Positions 1 to 55,860 of a stretch of 56,043 nt of DNA are shown here, piece by piece (the stretch's first letter is position 1; each line of letters opens with the position of its first letter). This DNA comes from an uncultured Bacilli bacterium. GTDB taxonomy: Bacteria; Bacillota_I; Bacilli_A; RF39; UBA660. The position numbers and the translations under genes were made by a program. The notes beneath the pieces are model-generated. The model was not told the DNA's origin. It ran no database searches and was given only the letters and a program-made list of their open reading frames with translations. Location: contig CANRPP010000005.1 of NCBI GenBank assembly GCA_947632545.1, positions 1-56,043 of the forward strand, written 5' to 3'.

Positions 1-93
1 TACAGTTTTGTAGAATTAAAATACCGTTTGTAGAAAAAGGGAAAGTTAAATAAAAAATTTACTCGCAAATAGTAAAATGAATTATAAAAAATA

Positions 94-124
94 TTGACTT
101 GGGGGGGGGTAGTTATTGTATAAT
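94..124 (+). promoter_or_regulatory. sigma-A-type promoter with G9 homopolymer in the spacer
   Basis: TTGACT 94-99, G9 101-109, TATAAT 119-124 (19-bp spacer); RBS AAAGGAGG 134-141 follows. Confidence 0.75.
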
Positions 125-148
125 ACTGATATGAAAGGAGGGAAAATA

Positions 149-1042
149 ATGAAAAAATTTATGATGTTAGCGACAATATTAGTTGCAGGATTATTATTTA
201 TACCTAATATTTATGCAGAAAGTGAAATAGAAACCGCCGAAAATTTAAAAACAGCATTAAGTACTGCAGAAAATAATACGGTTACATTAAAAGCAAATAC
301 TACTATTACATTAAAGGCTAGTGATCTTCCAATAACAGTAAATAAGAATGTAACAATAGAAGGTAATGGTGCTACAATTAAAGTTGAAGATGAAAGTAGT
401 GTTGATTTAAAAGGTGATAAATCAATAATTACCGTTGTAGATGGAGGAGATGTTACTATAAATAATCTAACTTTAGAAGGATCTCCAAAATATGGATTAC
501 AAGCTTATAATGGTGGAAAAATTACAATTGATAATGTAACAATTAAAAATTGTAAGTATGGAGCAATATTAGTAAATGGTGGAGATGTAACAGTTAAACA
601 TCTAGCTATGGCTAATAATGGTACTAATGGTGGAAATGGTATTGAAATAGGAAAAGGAGAAAATGTTACTCAAGAGCCAAAAGTTACTTTAGATGGAACT
701 ATTACTTCAGATAATCAAAATGGATATATTACTGTTGCTGAAAATGATCATCTTGATAAATTTACAGTAGAAAGCACAGATACATCAGAAGAAAAACTTC
801 AAATAAAAGATGGTCAGGTAGTTATTACTAATAAAGATGGTAAAATTATAGCAGCATCTAATACCATAAAATCTGGTGTAACACCTCAAGGTGAAGAATA
901 TCAAGAACCAGTTACAATTACTGAACAACCAAAAGAAGAAGCAAATCCTAATACATCTGATATTAACTTATATTTATTATTAAGTATGATTGCAGCAAGT
1001 GGATTAGGAATAGGTTATACAGTAAAAAGAAGATTTAACTAA
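149..1042 (+). CDS. Secreted, cell-wall-anchored protein with right-handed beta-helix-like repeats
   Basis: ATG 149 after AAAGGAGG (preferred to TTG 116); signal peptide; G/N/I/T-rich repeats; C-terminal NPNTSD, hydrophobic helix and KRR tail. Confidence 0.8.
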   Translation: MKKFMMLATILVAGLLFIPNIYAESEIETAENLKTALSTAENNTVTLKANTTITLKASDLPITVNKNVTIEGNGATIKVEDESSVDLKGDKSIITVVDGGDVTINNLTLEGSPKYGLQAYNGGKITIDNVTIKNCKYGAILVNGGDVTVKHLAMANNGTNGGNGIEIGKGENVTQEPKVTLDGTITSDNQNGYITVAENDHLDKFTVESTDTSEEKLQIKDGQVVITNKDGKIIAASNTIKSGVTPQGEEYQEPVTITEQPKEEANPNTSDINLYLLLSMIAASGLGIGYTVKRRFN

Positions 1043-1071
1043 TATATTAATTTAGTAATATTTTATATTTT

Positions 1072-1100
1072 GAGCTAATACTATCTATTAGCTCTTTTTT
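1072..1100 (+). terminator. Rho-independent terminator
   Basis: GAGCTAATA-ctatc-TATTAGCTC followed by a T run. Confidence 0.8.
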
Positions 1101-1179
1101 ATTTAAATTTTATTATGCAACATAATGACTTTTTATTATAAATTTGGTAAAATATTAATATATTGTGTGGTGAGATATA

Positions 1180-2208
1180 ATGTATTGTAAAAAATGTGGT
1201 GAAAAAGTAAAAGAAAATTATAAATTTTGTAAGAATTGTGGTACTCCTATATCAAATAACTTAAATAGCAATAACAATATAATAGAAAATTCTAATATTA
1301 AAGAAGAAGATTTAGTGAAAATTTATGTAGGAAATAACTATAATGAATTAAAGAAAACAAAATTTTCTATACCAACATTTTTTCTAGGCATATATTATTT
1401 TTTATATAGAAAGATGTGGCTATATGCATTAATTTCATTTATAATTGTAGTAATATCATTTACTATTACAATTATTTATGAGAATCCAATATATATCTTA
1501 ATACAATTAATATATATTATTTTTATGGCATTTAAATTTAATGATTTATATATAAAGAAAGCAGAAAAAAGAGTAAATAAAATAAAACAAATTAATAATA
1601 ATAAAACTAATAAAGAGCTTGCATTAATATGTAAAACTAAAGGTGGAGTAAGCATATTAGCGGTAATATTAACAATAGTAATTCTAATGATTATATCATT
1701 TATATCAATATTTATTATAGTATTTTGCTTTATATTTAATGAAATACCTGATAAAATAGATAAACATAATAATTATATTAATGATAATAGTAAATTAGAA
1801 TATGTTGTTCCAGATATCTTTAAAGATAATAATTATCATTCTAAAGATTATGCTAATTATAGTTATTACAATAATAATGCATCATGTAATATTTTAATAA
1901 GTAATAGTATTATGTATGAAGATACTAATATTGATAATTATATAAAAAATGATGTTACAATAAAAATGGATGATACTGTTAGTGATATAAAAACTAGTAA
2001 TATTAATAATTATGAATGGAAATATGTAGAAATTAAAAGTGAAAATAGTATTGAATATTATTATGCATCTATATTTGATAATAGAGTATATAAAGTAAAA
2101 TATAAAATTAATAAAGATAATAATAATTTATGTACTAATGGATATAATACATTTATAAACTCTTTGAAGTTTAAAAAAGAAGATATAAAAAATGATAATA
2201 TAATTTAA
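1180..2208 (+). CDS. Zinc-ribbon plus DUF2628-like membrane protein with extracellular C-terminal domain
   Basis: CxxCG...FCxxCG; F..G..YFLYRKMW motif; several TM helices. Confidence 0.75.
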   Translation: MYCKKCGEKVKENYKFCKNCGTPISNNLNSNNNIIENSNIKEEDLVKIYVGNNYNELKKTKFSIPTFFLGIYYFLYRKMWLYALISFIIVVISFTITIIYENPIYILIQLIYIIFMAFKFNDLYIKKAEKRVNKIKQINNNKTNKELALICKTKGGVSILAVILTIVILMIISFISIFIIVFCFIFNEIPDKIDKHNNYINDNSKLEYVVPDIFKDNNYHSKDYANYSYYNNNASCNILISNSIMYEDTNIDNYIKNDVTIKMDDTVSDIKTSNINNYEWKYVEIKSENSIEYYYASIFDNRVYKVKYKINKDNNNLCTNGYNTFINSLKFKKEDIKNDNII

Positions 2209-2219
2209 GAAGGTGAACA

Positions 2220-3392
2220 ATGAAAACTATTACAGATTTAGAATTAGAAAATAAAAAAGTTTTAATTAGATGTGATTTTAATGTTCCAATAAAAAATGGA
2301 AAAATTATAGATGATACGAGAATAAAAGAGAGTTTAAAAACTATTAACTATTGTATAGAAAAAAATGCTAAAATAATATTATTATCTCATTTAGGTAGAG
2401 TTAAGACTGAATCTGATAAAAAAGATAAAACTTTAAAACCAATTGCCAAAAAATTAGAAAAGTTGTTAAATAAGGAAATAAAATTTATACCTGAAACAAG
2501 AGGAAAAAAATTAGAAGATGCAGTTGATTCATTAAAAAATGGTGAATTATTACTGATAGAAAATACTAGATTTGAAGATATAAATGGAAAAAAAGAAAGT
2601 AGTAATGATAAAGAATTAGGAAAGTATTGGGCATCACTTGGAGATATATTTATTAATGATGCTTTTGGTACAATACATAGAAAACATGCTTCTAATGTAG
2701 GTATTGCGTCAAATAAAGATAGTGCAGTAGGGTTTTTAGTAGAAAAGGAATTAAATGTATTATCTGAATTAAAATGTCCTACTAAACCATTTATTATAAT
2801 ATTAGGTGGAAGTAAAGTAAGTGATAAAATAGGTGTTATTAAGAATTTAGTGAAAAAAGCAGATCGTATATTAATAGGTGGAGGTATGGCTTTTACATTT
2901 TTGCAAAGTGAAGGATATAATATTGGTAGTTCTATATTGGATCAAGATAGCCTAGATTTTTGCAGAGATATTTTAAATAAGTATCCAGAAAAAATTTTAT
3001 TACCAGTAGATGTAAATGTAACTACTGAATTTAGTAATAGTACAAAAAATGAAGTTAAAGATATAACAGAAATTGCTGATAATGAAATGGGTCTTGATAT
3101 AGGACCTAATACAATAACTTTATATGAAAATTATTTAAAAGATGCTAAAACAGTACTATGGAATGGACCTTTGGGAGTATATGAATTAAATAAGTATAAA
3201 AAATCAACAGATGAAATATTAAAATTTTTAGTTGATAACAATATTAAAACTATATTAGGTGGTGGTGATATAGTTGCAGCCGCCTCAAATGCTAAATTAA
3301 ATGATAAAGTATATCATGCATCAACTGGAGGGGGAGCAACTTTAGAATATTTAGAAGGTAAAAAATTGCCAGGTGTAGAAGTAATAAAGTAG
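2220..3392 (+). CDS. pgk: Phosphoglycerate kinase
   Basis: RCDFNVP, SHLGR, NDAFGTIHR, WNGPLG, STGGGA motifs. Confidence 0.98.
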   Translation: MKTITDLELENKKVLIRCDFNVPIKNGKIIDDTRIKESLKTINYCIEKNAKIILLSHLGRVKTESDKKDKTLKPIAKKLEKLLNKEIKFIPETRGKKLEDAVDSLKNGELLLIENTRFEDINGKKESSNDKELGKYWASLGDIFINDAFGTIHRKHASNVGIASNKDSAVGFLVEKELNVLSELKCPTKPFIIILGGSKVSDKIGVIKNLVKKADRILIGGGMAFTFLQSEGYNIGSSILDQDSLDFCRDILNKYPEKILLPVDVNVTTEFSNSTKNEVKDITEIADNEMGLDIGPNTITLYENYLKDAKTVLWNGPLGVYELNKYKKSTDEILKFLVDNNIKTILGGGDIVAAASNAKLNDKVYHASTGGGATLEYLEGKKLPGVEVIK

Positions 3393-3400
3393 GTGATAAA

Positions 3401-3862
3401 ATGAATTTAGTAGCAGTAACAAATTATGATAAGAGTTTATATGCTAAATTAAAAAGATTTGAACAATATAGTGGAAAAAAATTAACTTTTTTAAATAACA
3501 AATCAAATATAAATAAAACAAATAATTCTTCAGTAGAATTATGTGATTTGTTATATCAAGAAAAACAAGGTGAAATTAATAATATATGTTATATAAAAGG
3601 GACTAGTGATAATGGTCTATTTCAATTAGATATAATTAATTTGAACAATTCACAAGTGAAAACAAACCTTGATTTTATAGAATCTGTTACTGAATATGCA
3701 TTTACTGTATTAAATGCTAAAACTACAACTATACTTTCTAACGATTATAATGAAAATGATTTAATGTCACTTGGGTATGAATCATTAGGTGAATATAATG
3801 GAGTATATACTTATGTAAAAGATAGACAAAAACAACCAGAAATGAGTGGAATATCAAGATGA
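3401..3862 (+). CDS. Hypothetical protein, possibly degenerate GNAT (RimJ-like) fold
   Basis: RBS AGGTGA; EYAF...L..LGY pattern of GNAT C-termini; ATGA overlap with next gene. Confidence 0.55.
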   Translation: MNLVAVTNYDKSLYAKLKRFEQYSGKKLTFLNNKSNINKTNNSSVELCDLLYQEKQGEINNICYIKGTSDNGLFQLDIINLNNSQVKTNLDFIESVTEYAFTVLNAKTTTILSNDYNENDLMSLGYESLGEYNGVYTYVKDRQKQPEMSGISR

Positions 3863-4866
3863 AAATAATTAATAATATCAAGAAAAACGCAATTATAATA
3901 TCAATAATAACAATTATTGTAATGTACTTTGTACTAAAAGATGATTTTAAAAATATAGTTAATACCTTACTAACAGTAGATATAAAATATATTTTAATAT
4001 CTATTCTTATATTTTTTATATCACTTTTTTTTAAAGCTTACATTTCATATAAAACAGTTGATAATAAAGAAAAATATTCTCTATTAGAATCAATTAAACA
4101 TAATGTAATAATTCAGTTTTTTAATGGGATTACACCATTTTCTACTGGTGGACAACCTATGGAAATATATATGCTTACAAAACATGATATAAATGCAAGT
4201 AAAGGTACAATGATAACTTTACAAAACTTTATATTCTATCAAATAGCTTTAGTATTATTTGGAATAGGTGCGGTTATATATAATGCAATATATGATATTT
4301 TTCCAAAAATTCCAATTTTAAGAAAATTAGTACTAATTGGATTTATAATAAATACACTTGTTGCAGTAGTAATAATTATAATTTCTATTTCAAAAAAGTT
4401 CACCACATCTTTTATTAAATTTATAATTAATATTTTATATAAATTAAGATTAATAAAGGATAAAACTAAAACTAAAGAAAATTGGAATAGAAGAATAAAT
4501 GAATTTCATGAATGTGCTGAATATTTAAGAAAAAGGAAAAAATTAACTTTAGTAGGAATTTTATTTAATTTTCTTTCTCTAGCGGCACTTTATATAATTC
4601 CATTATTTATATTATATAGTATGGGTAACTTTACTAGCTTAAGTATAAAAACAACATTGATATCATCAGCTTATGTACTTTTAATAGGAGCATTCATACC
4701 AATACCAGGTGGAAGTGGTGGAATCGAATATGGATTTTTACAATTTTTTGGTAATTTTTTATCAAAAAGCGAAGTAGGAACGGCATTATTAATTTGGAGA
4801 TTTATAACATACTATATGCCTATGATTATAGGTGCTATTGCTTTTAACTTTGATGAAAGGAAGTAA
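3859..4866 (+). CDS. Lysylphosphatidylglycerol-synthase TM domain (UPF0104 flippase-like) protein
   Basis: FFNGITPFSTGGQP, PIPGGSGGIE and LIWRFITYY motifs; multiple TM helices. Confidence 0.9.
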   Translation: MKIINNIKKNAIIISIITIIVMYFVLKDDFKNIVNTLLTVDIKYILISILIFFISLFFKAYISYKTVDNKEKYSLLESIKHNVIIQFFNGITPFSTGGQPMEIYMLTKHDINASKGTMITLQNFIFYQIALVLFGIGAVIYNAIYDIFPKIPILRKLVLIGFIINTLVAVVIIIISISKKFTTSFIKFIINILYKLRLIKDKTKTKENWNRRINEFHECAEYLRKRKKLTLVGILFNFLSLAALYIIPLFILYSMGNFTSLSIKTTLISSAYVLLIGAFIPIPGGSGGIEYGFLQFFGNFLSKSEVGTALLIWRFITYYMPMIIGAIAFNFDERK

Positions 4867-4870
4867 CATT

Positions 4871-6097
4871 ATGAGAATTGGTTTATTTACAGATACATAT
4901 CCTCCACAAATAAATGGAGTATCAACAAGTGTACAAATGTTAAAGAATGCATTAGAAAAGAAAAACCATGAAGTATATGTAATAACTTCAAATAATAGTT
5001 CAATAAAATATGATTATGATGAAGATAAACATATCTTAAGAATTCCAGGTGTACCAACTGGTATATATGATTATAGATTAACAAAAATATATCCATTAAA
5101 AGTAATTAATTTAATAAAAGGTTGGAAATTAGATGTAATTCATTCTCACACAGAATTTGGTGTAGGCATATTTGCTAGAATTTTTGCAAAACAATTTAAT
5201 ATACCTTTAGTTCATACATATCACACTATGTATGAAGATTATACCCATTATATAACTCATGGTTATTTTGATAGAACAAGTAAAAAAATAGTTGAATATT
5301 TAACAAAATTTTATTGTGATAAAACAGCATCAGAATTAATTGTACCAACTAATAAAATATATAAATTATTTAAAGAAAAATATACATTTGAAAAAAATAT
5401 ACATATTGTACCAACAGGTATTGAAGTAGAAAGATTCTTTAAAGAAAATGTAGATATAGAAACTATTACTTATTTAAGAAAAAGATTAGGTTATACAAAA
5501 AAAGATATAGTTTTATTATTTGTAGGAAGAATTGCGCAAGAAAAAAATATAGAATTTTTATTAAATGCACATAAAAAATTAATAAGTATAAATAAAAATA
5601 TAAAATTATTAATAGTAGGAGATGGCCCTGATAGACAAAAATATGAAAAATTATCAAAAAAGTTAAAAATAGAAAATAACGTAAAGTTTGTAGGAAAAAT
5701 ACCTTGGGATGAAACAGAATACTATTATAATATTGCGGATATTTTTGTAACTGCATCAACTACAGAAACTCAAGGTTTAACTATAATAGAAGCAATGGCG
5801 TCTAGTCTTACACCAGTATGTATAAATGATGAGGCTTTTATTAGTGCTGTTACTAATGATTTAAATGGTTATATATTCAATGATGAAAATGATTATTGTA
5901 ATATAATATTGGATTTAGTAAAAAATAAAAATAAAAGAATCAAAGCAGGAATTCAAGCAAGAATACAAGCTGAACATCTTTCTTCATCACAATTTGCAAG
6001 TAATGTTTTATTAGTTTATGAACATGCACTATCAAGTAAGAATAAATATAGATATGGCTTTATTTCTAAAATAGTAGAAAAGATGAAAGGAGAGTAA
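4871..6097 (+). CDS. GT4 glycosyltransferase (diacylglycerol glucosyltransferase-like)
   Basis: MRIGLFTDTYPPQINGV, VHTYHT, VGRIAQEKN, ETQGLTIIEAMA. Confidence 0.9.
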   Translation: MRIGLFTDTYPPQINGVSTSVQMLKNALEKKNHEVYVITSNNSSIKYDYDEDKHILRIPGVPTGIYDYRLTKIYPLKVINLIKGWKLDVIHSHTEFGVGIFARIFAKQFNIPLVHTYHTMYEDYTHYITHGYFDRTSKKIVEYLTKFYCDKTASELIVPTNKIYKLFKEKYTFEKNIHIVPTGIEVERFFKENVDIETITYLRKRLGYTKKDIVLLFVGRIAQEKNIEFLLNAHKKLISINKNIKLLIVGDGPDRQKYEKLSKKLKIENNVKFVGKIPWDETEYYYNIADIFVTASTTETQGLTIIEAMASSLTPVCINDEAFISAVTNDLNGYIFNDENDYCNIILDLVKNKNKRIKAGIQARIQAEHLSSSQFASNVLLVYEHALSSKNKYRYGFISKIVEKMKGE

Positions 6098-12531: not shown

Positions 12532-13046
12532 AAATTACTATTTATTATTAATTGTTTACTACTATCAGTTGTACTACAAGTAGTTAATACTAATTGATTA
12601 TTTGAAGTTTTATTAATTTCAATATCCCCATCTTTATCTTCTAAAAATTTATTATCTACTACATATGTATATTTATTATTTTTATATTGAAGTAATATTT
12701 CATCTCCTACTTTTAATTTATATAAATTATTAAAATATGATACCTCACTATTACCAGAATGTGCTGCTAGAAAAATAATACTATTTTCGTTATCAGGTAA
12801 AATTGATCCTTCAAGTAATTCTACATTTTTTGAAACATTATTATTTTTACTATTTATTTTATATATAGGTTTATTAATATTAAGTTTTTTTATAGATAAA
12901 TTAGCTATAGGTAATTCTTTAGGTATAACACTATTATTAGAAATATTTTTTGTAATAGTATCAGCTGAAATATGAAATGTCATAATAATAAATAAACAAA
13001 ATATAATACAACTAACTAAAAATATTTTTTTTAACAACAAGTCCAC
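12522..13046 (-). CDS. Sortase (compact, class D/F-like), non-canonical triad
   Basis: N-terminal TM; LAAHSG, YFNNLYKLKVGD, LVLTTC; the Arg position appears as Gln (SKQLII). Confidence 0.88.
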   Translation of the reverse strand: MDLLLKKIFLVSCIIFCLFIIMTFHISADTITKNISNNSVIPKELPIANLSIKKLNINKPIYKINSKNNNVSKNVELLEGSILPDNENSIIFLAAHSGNSEVSYFNNLYKLKVGDEILLQYKNNKYTYVVDNKFLEDKDGDIEINKTSNNQLVLTTCSTTDSSKQLIINSNLKK

Positions 13047-54794: not shown

Positions 54795-54861
54795 AATATC
54801 CCCTCCAAACTAGGCCTATTATAACATGAAGTTTTATTTTTGTATAGTCGTTAAATTTTAT

Positions 54862-54891
54862 TTGACAAAACGCTCTGGGGGGGGGTAGAAT
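54862..54891 (+). promoter_or_regulatory. sigma-A-type promoter with G9 homopolymer in the spacer
   Basis: TTGACA 54862-54867, G9 54877-54885, TAGAAT 54886-54891 (18-bp spacer). Confidence 0.78.
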
Positions 54892-54924
54892 TATAGTATA
54901 AGATAAAAAAATACGGAGAAAGTT

Positions 54925-55860
54925 ATGAAAAGGATAGTAAAGAAAAATTATAAAATACTAATAGGTATAGTAATAGGAATAATTATATCAACAACAATAG
55001 TATATAGTGCAGAAAATATATTAACAGGAGAAGATATTTCATATGATAATAAAACAAGTGGAGAAGAAACAGTACAAGGTGCGATAGATGAATTATATGA
55101 AAAAGCAAATAAAAGTAAAGCCCCAAAACCAAATAATACAAATATAGTAGCTGTATATTATTATGATGAAACAAAAGGATCAGAAGATTTTTGTGTAACA
55201 GGAGATGAAGAAACCTGTAAAGTAAATACATGTTATTTAAATAAAGCAAAAGATAGTTGCCCATCTGGAACAATAGTAGAATATAAAGTAAATGATAATG
55301 ATACTGTAAGATTTCATGTAATGAAAGATAATGGAAGTAAAATGATATTACAAAGTCAACAAAATACACTAAATAGTATACAGTGGTATACTGAAAATAA
55401 TAATAGTTATGGTCCAACAACAGCATTAAGTGAATTGGAAAAAGCAACAGAAAATTGGGCTAATGTAAATACATTTGATTATTCAATAGGAGATGATAAA
55501 TCAACATTAGGATATTCTGGTTGTAATGGTTCTCAAGAGTGGACAACAACTCCTTATATTTTAGAAAAAAAAGGAATTAAAGCAAGAATGATAACAATGC
55601 AAGAAGTCATTAGTTTTGGATGTAATAATGAAGATAATAATAATATTGTCTCTTGTCCAATATGGATGTACAATTATTTAAAAGATTCAATAAATTTTGG
55701 GGGAACAATAAATGACTCAAATGCATTAGCTTCCTATTGGACTATGTCTACAGCAATGTGGAAAGATATTATGGCTTTTGTGATATATAAAAATACATAT
55801 AGCACTTTGAGTACTAATTTAAAATCAGGAGCCAGAGCAGTAGTAGAAATAAATAAATAA
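54925..55860 (+). CDS. Exported surface protein with C-terminal C-type-lectin-fold-like (DUF6273-like) domain
   Basis: Signal/TM N-terminus; SYDN..SG..TVQGAIDELY linker; ARMIT..E, YWTMS...AFVI...GARAVVEI terminal pattern; several Cys. Confidence 0.7.
   Translation: MKRIVKKNYKILIGIVIGIIISTTIVYSAENILTGEDISYDNKTSGEETVQGAIDELYEKANKSKAPKPNNTNIVAVYYYDETKGSEDFCVTGDEETCKVNTCYLNKAKDSCPSGTIVEYKVNDNDTVRFHVMKDNGSKMILQSQQNTLNSIQWYTENNNSYGPTTALSELEKATENWANVNTFDYSIGDDKSTLGYSGCNGSQEWTTTPYILEKKGIKARMITMQEVISFGCNNEDNNNIVSCPIWMYNYLKDSINFGGTINDSNALASYWTMSTAMWKDIMAFVIYKNTYSTLSTNLKSGARAVVEINK

Follow-up and report, generated by a model that had tools for sequence, protein, structure and literature searches.

Why does a genome with only 24.3% G+C hold nine consecutive G residues between the −35 and −10 hexamers of a promoter, and what would they do to the gene that follows? 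The question is raised by positions 94-124 of the window, i.e., the whole stretch of DNA that was analysed (56,043 nucleotides, the complete contig C5). The window belongs to a genome of 1,045,355 bp from an uncultured Bacilli bacterium, assembled in 42 contigs with about 95% completeness. We consider that the site is probably a slipped-strand phase-variable (or volume-control) sigma-A promoter, with the G9 run as its variable element. The feature stands as real and non-random, and its interest lies more in the genome- and lineage-wide system than in the individual site.

The features of the locus and of the related sites are collected in Table 1. The original prediction had read the site as TTGACT-t-G9-tagttattg-TATAAT with a 19-bp spacer, and this was confirmed base by base. 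Its description of a homopolymer lying in the −35/−10 spacer of a strong-looking promoter, upstream of the gene of a sortase-anchored surface protein, also stood. The same applied to the rarity that it had claimed for such runs: the window holds two G/C runs of nine bases (at 101 and 54877), none of six to eight, and seven of five bases, which are the next longest. The A/T-rich stretch that adjoins the −35 hexamer has counterparts similar to aattataaaaaat in the other family-A promoters (see below). It resembles an UP element and may function as one. The site was absent from an automated promoter scan because that scan permits spacers of 16-18 bp only. No known RNA element was found in positions 1-1300, where the sole match had an E value of 0.49.

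Table 1. Coordinates of the promoter, the downstream gene, the second poly-G locus of the window and the sortase genes (window positions, unless a contig is given)
Feature	Position	Strand	Description or basis
A/T-rich stretch aattataaaaaat	81..93	+	Adjoins −35; read from the sequence
−35 hexamer TTGACT	94..99	+	5/6 match to TTGACA
Promoter spacer, 19 bp	100..118	+	t (100) + G9 + tagttattg (110-118)
G9 homopolymer, putative slippage tract	101..109	+	Sequence read and genome-wide run count
−10 hexamer TATAAT	119..124	+	6/6 match
Ribosome-binding site AAAGGAGGG	134..142	+	Strong; 7 nt before the ATG at 149
CDS, 297 aa + stop	149..1042	+	Secreted right-handed beta-helix protein, family-A member
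Signal peptide MKKFMMLATILVAGLLFIPNIYA	149..217	+	Conserved across family A
C-terminal sorting signal	944..1039	+	NPNTSD (944-961), hydrophobic segment INLYLLLSMIAASGLGIGYTV, KRRFN tail
Intrinsic terminator	1072..1104	+	Terminator scan
Second poly-G promoter, type B	54862..54891	+	TTGACA, aaacgctct, G9 (54877-54885), TAGAAT; 18-bp spacer
Family-B gene, 311 aa	54925..55860	+	N-terminal membrane anchor, Cys-rich body, C-terminal ...GARAVVEINK
Sortase genes	C5:12540-12899 (in window), C1:57139, C11:13422, C13:1454, C10:17324, C10:40538, C2:28538		

Other readings of the 19-bp spacer were considered at the level of the promoter itself. An alternative −35 at 17 bp from TATAAT was ruled out, as positions 96-101 read GACTTG, which is not −35-like. 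A TGn extended −10 was also ruled out, the TG abutting the hexamer instead of standing one base off. Promoters activated by MerR-type regulators have spacers of 19-20 bp that hold a dyad-symmetric operator. This reading was rejected as well, since the spacer, tGGGGGGGGGtagttattg, has neither a C run to pair with the G run nor an inverted repeat.

The gene downstream encodes a protein that matched the beta-helix profile PF13229 over residues 94-196 (E 1.4e-9, 38.2 bits vs a cut-off of 25.9). Cleavage of its signal peptide would be expected after IYA. The gene is monocistronic by our reading, because an intrinsic terminator comes right after it. Sorting signals of the NPxTx type go with class B sortases, whose motif consensus is NP(Q/K)(T/S)(N/G/S)(D/A). 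The protein has the layout of a class B sortase substrate, with a signal peptide, an NPxTx-type motif, a hydrophobic segment and a basic tail; NPNTSD carries N at position 3, vs Q/K in the consensus. The columns of the sorting signal were invariant in 7/7 aligned family-A paralogues. One of the family-A paralogues lies at C21:7125-8097 and is 96.7% identical over 973 bp.

Sortase-domain genes numbered seven in this 1.05-Mb genome. Three of them exceeded the cut-off of the TIGR03064 class-B equivalog (160.8, 163.7 and 154.4 vs 153.75), a count that rests on five of the seven sortases and leaves the one in the window (12540-12899) without a class. Two of the three class-B sortases flank clusters of family-A genes with poly-G promoters on contig C10. 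The protein had originally been called cell-wall-anchored, which is a sound reading given its sorting signal and the encoded class B sortases, two of them beside paralogue clusters. In the accessible portion of a study of related lineages, srtA/B sortases were absent in RFN20 and ML615J-28, and most RF39 species were predicted to have a peptidoglycan wall (PMC10868615). The seven sortases found here would suit a tentative, RF39-like placement of the genome.

The neighbouring gene (1180-2208) encodes a zinc-ribbon membrane protein (MYCKKCG...). A paralogue of it is found at C24:618-1598, beside another poly-G promoter, and in a relative of the same genus (locus L020, G013) a poly-G promoter directly drives a zinc-ribbon protein.

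The tract had been treated as a single locus, but it is one of about ten copies of a type-A promoter, among 23 poly-G promoters in all. Across the genome, G/C runs of six bases occurred four times, runs of seven were missing (n = 0), and runs of at least eight occurred 23 times (lengths 8-11), vs 0.087 expected from base composition. All of these long runs (23/23) sit between a TTGAC-type −35 and a TATAAT-type −10, and in every case (23/23) it is the sense (non-template) strand, relative to the gene that follows, that carries the G residues. Type A (10 copies, including 101-109) consists of TTGACy, 0-1 nt, G9-11, tagttatNg and TATAAT, and heads genes with a common signal peptide and NPNTSD anchor. 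Type B (13 copies, including 54877) consists of TTGACA, 9 nt and G9-10, followed directly by a −10-like TAGAAT, TATATT or TATGAT. Most type-B promoters precede genes whose products begin with a membrane anchor, share a conserved NIQGAIDELY motif and differ in a Cys-rich body.

For the family-B protein of the window, which belongs to a family of 13 members, no Pfam or NCBIfam match above cut-offs was found; the query (54916-55851) was in frame, from three codons before the true ATG at 54925 to two codons short of the end. The C-terminus of this protein is, as we take it, loosely like DUF1566-type endings. A 62-bp intergenic segment (window 1-62) recurs at C29:40-101 with 96.8% identity, upstream of a type-B poly-G promoter, and several poly-G promoters were found at contig ends. 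Small repeated intergenic modules accompany the poly-G promoters and probably cause the contig breaks.

To relate the tract to promoter spacing, the whole genome was scanned for TTGACA/TATAAT sites that matched at 11/12 positions or more, for every spacing from 13 to 23 bp. The preference of ordinary promoters for 17 bp, as first proposed from a few sites of the window, was borne out: 112 non-poly-G sites had this spacing, vs 28-44 at each other spacing. Among perfect (12/12) non-poly-G sites, 19 were at 17 bp, four at 18 bp, two at 16 bp and none at 19 bp. The poly-G promoters that could be measured (n = 22) all reached 11/12 or more, with spacers of 18 bp (6), 19 bp (13), 20 bp (2) and 21 bp (1), and with none at 17 bp. 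They thus combine the best hexamers of the genome with the wrong spacing, which would be the signature of an activity set by spacer length. Within promoter families, the length from −35 to −10 differs only in the tract or at its edge. Another genome carries tracts of G11-G13 with just six further spacer bases, for a total of 18-19 bp. Since the longer tract goes with a shorter remaining spacer, it is the total spacer, and not tract length, that is bounded.

The same design was found well beyond this genome. The pattern TTGAC-N(0-12)-G8-TA was present in 13/41 relatives and, in the uncultured Bacilli family, in 91/401 genomes and 64/214 genera; with the pattern reversed as a control, the totals were 0 and 1 hits in the scans of relatives and family, respectively. 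A C-tract version of the promoter was found in 0/41 relatives. Single genomes carried up to 33 copies of the poly-G promoter. Across the lineage, the tract touches the −35, touches the −10 or lies in between, and its length is 8-13. Surface proteins are again the cargo: 95 promoter copies from other genera yielded 68 callable downstream ORFs, with an N-terminal hydrophobic signal or anchor in 61/68, and 16 of 38 full-length downstream ORFs from these genera had an NPxTx-type anchor. Many of the poly-G-driven proteins found elsewhere (loci L159-L212) have signals that end in GVTYAYW, GTTFAFF or SSYAYFS (GxTYAYW / TFAFF types). We take such endings to resemble SipW-dependent (TasA/camelysin-type) signal peptides.

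For spacing across genomes, the −10 was defined as the hexamer downstream of the tract that best resembled TATAAT, with A2 and T6 required and the spacer limited to 14-23 bp. Of 110 promoter copies from 26 genomes, 98 yielded an unambiguous spacer and the 12 ambiguous ones were dropped, in a sample that is uneven and whose paralogues are not independent. The counts were 2 at 14 bp, 4 at 15 bp, 23 at 16 bp, 5 at 17 bp, 13 at 18 bp, 36 at 19 bp, 11 at 20 bp, 3 at 21 bp and 1 at 23 bp. The assembled alleles were therefore bimodal, with modes at 16 and 19 bp and a dip at 17 bp (5/98; loci L014-L217). Our reading is that this pile-up is the pattern expected with bulk alleles parked OFF and ON alleles in the minority.

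Beyond the anatomy of the promoter, its genome- and lineage-wide distribution, its off-optimum spacing and its surface-protein cargo, we infer a high rate of tract-length switching within populations, a dependence of expression on the length of the spacer, and the identity of the ON length. Replication slippage would alter the G run by one base per step, and spacer length would set the strength of the sigma-A promoter, with 17 bp as the presumed optimum in this genome. The G9 allele at 94-124 is predicted to be weak or OFF because its 19-bp spacer is two over that optimum. By the same rule, G8 (18 bp) would be intermediate and G7 (17 bp) fully ON, so that ON is expected at G7-G8 for this type-A promoter, and G8 would be ON for type B. 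The loss of one or two G residues at 101-109 would then activate the gene of a secreted beta-helix protein that a class B sortase anchors. Each poly-G promoter heads a member of a surface multigene family, and therefore each cell would display a random subset of these proteins. The whole would amount to a set of contingency loci (a "phasome") built entirely from promoter-spacer homopolymers, with about 10 of type A and 13 of type B. The comparative picture, with its 23 promoters, differing lengths in two of six promoter pairs and family-wide design, fits such contingency loci. The best reading of the assembled alleles is that most loci would be parked OFF or low in the bulk population. Against switching counts that the predicted ON length, G7, is absent genome-wide (0 runs of seven) and that two steps are needed to reach it from G9.

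Extended to the family, the proposal becomes more tentative, possible rather than probable: a dedicated promoter with a G-only spacer tract may run the variable surface proteome of this family in at least 64 genera, with bulk alleles parked at 16 or 19 bp, one short of the 17-bp optimum and two past it, and a rare, random subset ON in each cell. The cargo in this reading would comprise sortase-anchored, TasA-like-signal and other secreted proteins.

We have looked for length variation of the tract both in public sequence data and among the copies within the genome. Twelve public runs were listed, of which 10 contain the window or a part of it (four studies; stored as Logan contigs; no RNA run among them). 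Eight of the 10 are labelled rabbit gut metagenome, one gut metagenome, and one has a coded organism. Logan contigs, not reads, from four runs (X1, X2, X5 and X6) were aligned to window 1-6000 at 90% likeness. Over these 6 kb only two indels were present in the four runs, an additional G at the tract (X2) and an additional T at 1094 (X5), the latter falling in the T run of the terminator. The additional G was carried by one contig, with a depth of 7.24 of 16.2, and this contig may be a paralogue, because 90% likeness admits the promoter at C10:18255. In alignment with window 82-161, this paralogous G10 promoter reaches 91.4%, with a single gap. The 30-mers that flank the two tracts of the window, in 60-160 and in 54840-54930, are unique in the genome. 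In three runs Logan contigs break off within the tract (X1 at 107, X6 at 103 and X2 at 100), as could result from length heterogeneity or from the known difficulty that G runs pose to sequencing. The available part of a Bifidobacterium breve paper also notes that G runs are hard to sequence (PMC9187656).

A metagenome scan with the family-A promoter pattern and a free gap of 6-16 nt gave 94 matches. No poly-G run was seen by eye among them, the longest G run being 4, and they were rejected as tract alleles; they are unrelated promoters, mostly with 16-17-bp spacers. Orthologues of the neighbour ORF (1180-2205) occur in 13/16 other genomes of the genus, at ≤48% identity, and no poly-G run was found within 1.5 kb of them in the 13 genomes, the locus not being syntenic. 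The loss of mismatch repair as a source of instability was rejected as well: MutS (858-aa frame) and MutL (592-aa frame) are both present and intact, and there is therefore no general mutator background.

The alternative that survives best is a fixed promoter module, in which the tract would be a conserved structural or regulator-binding element spread by duplication or gene conversion. The length differences would then represent slow drift, and control would be conventional, e.g., through a factor specific for the G run or one that makes up for the unusual spacer length. We consider this unlikely. The strongest argument for stable modules is that tract length is near-uniform within each genome: 28 of 33 sites in G316 are G9 (16 bp) with two at G10 (17 bp), and the predominant state accounts for 12/12 sites in G075 (G8), 13/14 in G268 and 17/20 in G336 (19 bp). 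Copies with identical flanks do differ in length, however. In the genome studied here, tract length differs in 2/6 promoter pairs with identical 25+25-nt flanks and in 8/18 pairs with ≤2 flank mismatches. That alleles are almost never at 17 bp would also follow if 16 or 19 bp works with a helper protein, and the contigs of the four runs hold no demonstrated length polymorphism at 101-109. Yet one binding geometry fits poorly with two dominant spacings (16 and 19-20 bp) and with a tract at either end of the spacer, and the total spacer is bounded across genera while the tract ranges from 8 to 13. The strict use of G on the sense strand (23/23, and C-tract 0/41) suggests that sequence matters and not just length. 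This polarity is not predicted by a pure spacer-length model and hints at a further mechanistic requirement. Against a fixed module, a spacer with a G run but without a C run leaves no place for a dyad operator under the MerR rule given above.

A recombination signal is a more improbable explanation, and one that is compatible with a phase-variable promoter, the two not being mutually exclusive. Family-A genes have near-identical 5′ ends (promoter and signal peptide) and 3′ ends (sorting signal) around unrelated middles, and such conserved ends could be homology arms for cassette exchange between paralogues, with the G tract marking or stimulating the exchange. In run X5, contigs connect window 161, 208 or 220 with 923 across different intervening sequence, a pattern suggestive of exchanged cassettes or of additional paralogues, and the lack of synteny in the 13 genus genomes with the neighbour gene would suit this reading too. 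The X5 joints, however, may be just paralogues matched at 90% likeness, an intramolecular quadruplex of the pilE type needs more than a single G run, and recombination leaves unexplained why the tract is placed exactly between −35 and −10 in 22/22 measurable cases.

A sequencing or assembly artefact, either the poly-G signal of two-colour chemistry or a wrongly joined contig end, is extremely unlikely. The contig does begin only 100 bp before the tract, other poly-G promoters are likewise found at contig ends, and Logan contigs stop inside the tract in three runs. However, conserved functional sequence borders this internal tract on either side, the same architecture is present in 91 independently assembled genomes, contigs of three studies contain the tract, its lengths of 8-13 are unlike the long terminal runs typical of artefact, and the contig ends are accounted for by the multi-copy promoters.

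A slipped-strand phase-variable promoter thus remains our preferred reading. If the tracts switch, a 1-Mb gut bacterium would hold 23 independent stochastic surface switches, i.e., roughly 2^23 surface states, and the device would recur in dozens of genera of a lineage that metagenomes alone have revealed. This would bear on the evasion of antibodies or phages by these organisms. It would also affect how metagenome-assembled genomes are interpreted, as contigs break at poly-G promoters and the consensus hides minority ON alleles. The system would be a Gram-positive-type, promoter-only form of phase variation with clean predictions of ON length. Should the family-wide reading be true, it would be the first promoter-only poly-G phasome, and gut metagenomes would contain a major, so far overlooked, source of heterogeneity within strains. 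The search for the device is simple and portable: G/C runs of at least eight bases in very low-GC genomes flag the whole regulon.

The mechanism itself is textbook, as in porA and vlp, and what appear undescribed are the lineage, the gene families, the scale and the strict G polarity. A literature search, which was not exhaustive, found no account of poly-G tracts in promoters of RF39, RFN20, UBA660 or further uncultured Bacilli of the gut. The original prediction had invoked promoter-spacer homopolymers that tune surface antigens, and the porA precedent was upheld by the sections available of a study in Neisseria meningitidis, with expression graded by tract length (PMC3639595). There, the G tract between −35 and −10 gave high surface expression with 11G, about 2-fold lower with 10G and about 13-fold lower with 9G (PMC3639595). 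As here, a G homopolymer occupies the −35/−10 spacer of a surface-antigen gene. However, porA encodes a Gram-negative outer-membrane porin at a single locus, whereas the present system comprises 23 loci and two paralogous families in a Gram-positive-type reduced genome, and its assembled alleles, unlike those of porA, lie above the optimum (18-21 bp).

The vlp genes of Mycoplasma hyorhinis form a lipoprotein multigene family in which each copy has a poly-A tract in its own promoter spacer; the majority of copies are OFF, with lengths above the optimum, and expression is combinatorial. The likeness extends to a variable surface family, a small AT-rich genome and the same broad Bacilli/Mollicutes radiation. 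The differences are that vlp uses poly-A, lipoproteins and a wall-less host, vs poly-G at 24% GC and cargo that is sortase- or N-terminally anchored, and that here, unlike in vlp, the device is common to many genera and to two families without relation to each other.

A gut commensal with G-tract control of sortase-dependent surface structures is also known. According to the portion available of the report on Bifidobacterium breve, replication slippage in G tracts switches sortase-dependent pili, and its authors mention unpublished promoter-spacer G-tracts (PMC9187656). The characterised B. breve tracts act by intragenic frameshift at two loci of a high-GC actinobacterium, whereas those described here are in promoter spacers only, and number 23. 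To our knowledge, Campylobacter lacks canonical MutS/MutL repair. In the excerpts available for C. jejuni, this low-GC species has a few dozen G/C tracts of 8-13 bases, far above expectation, that are contingency loci (PMC6321876, PMC3025981). The Campylobacter tracts are mostly intragenic, whereas in the genome studied here every tract lies in a promoter spacer, and both MutS and MutL are present.
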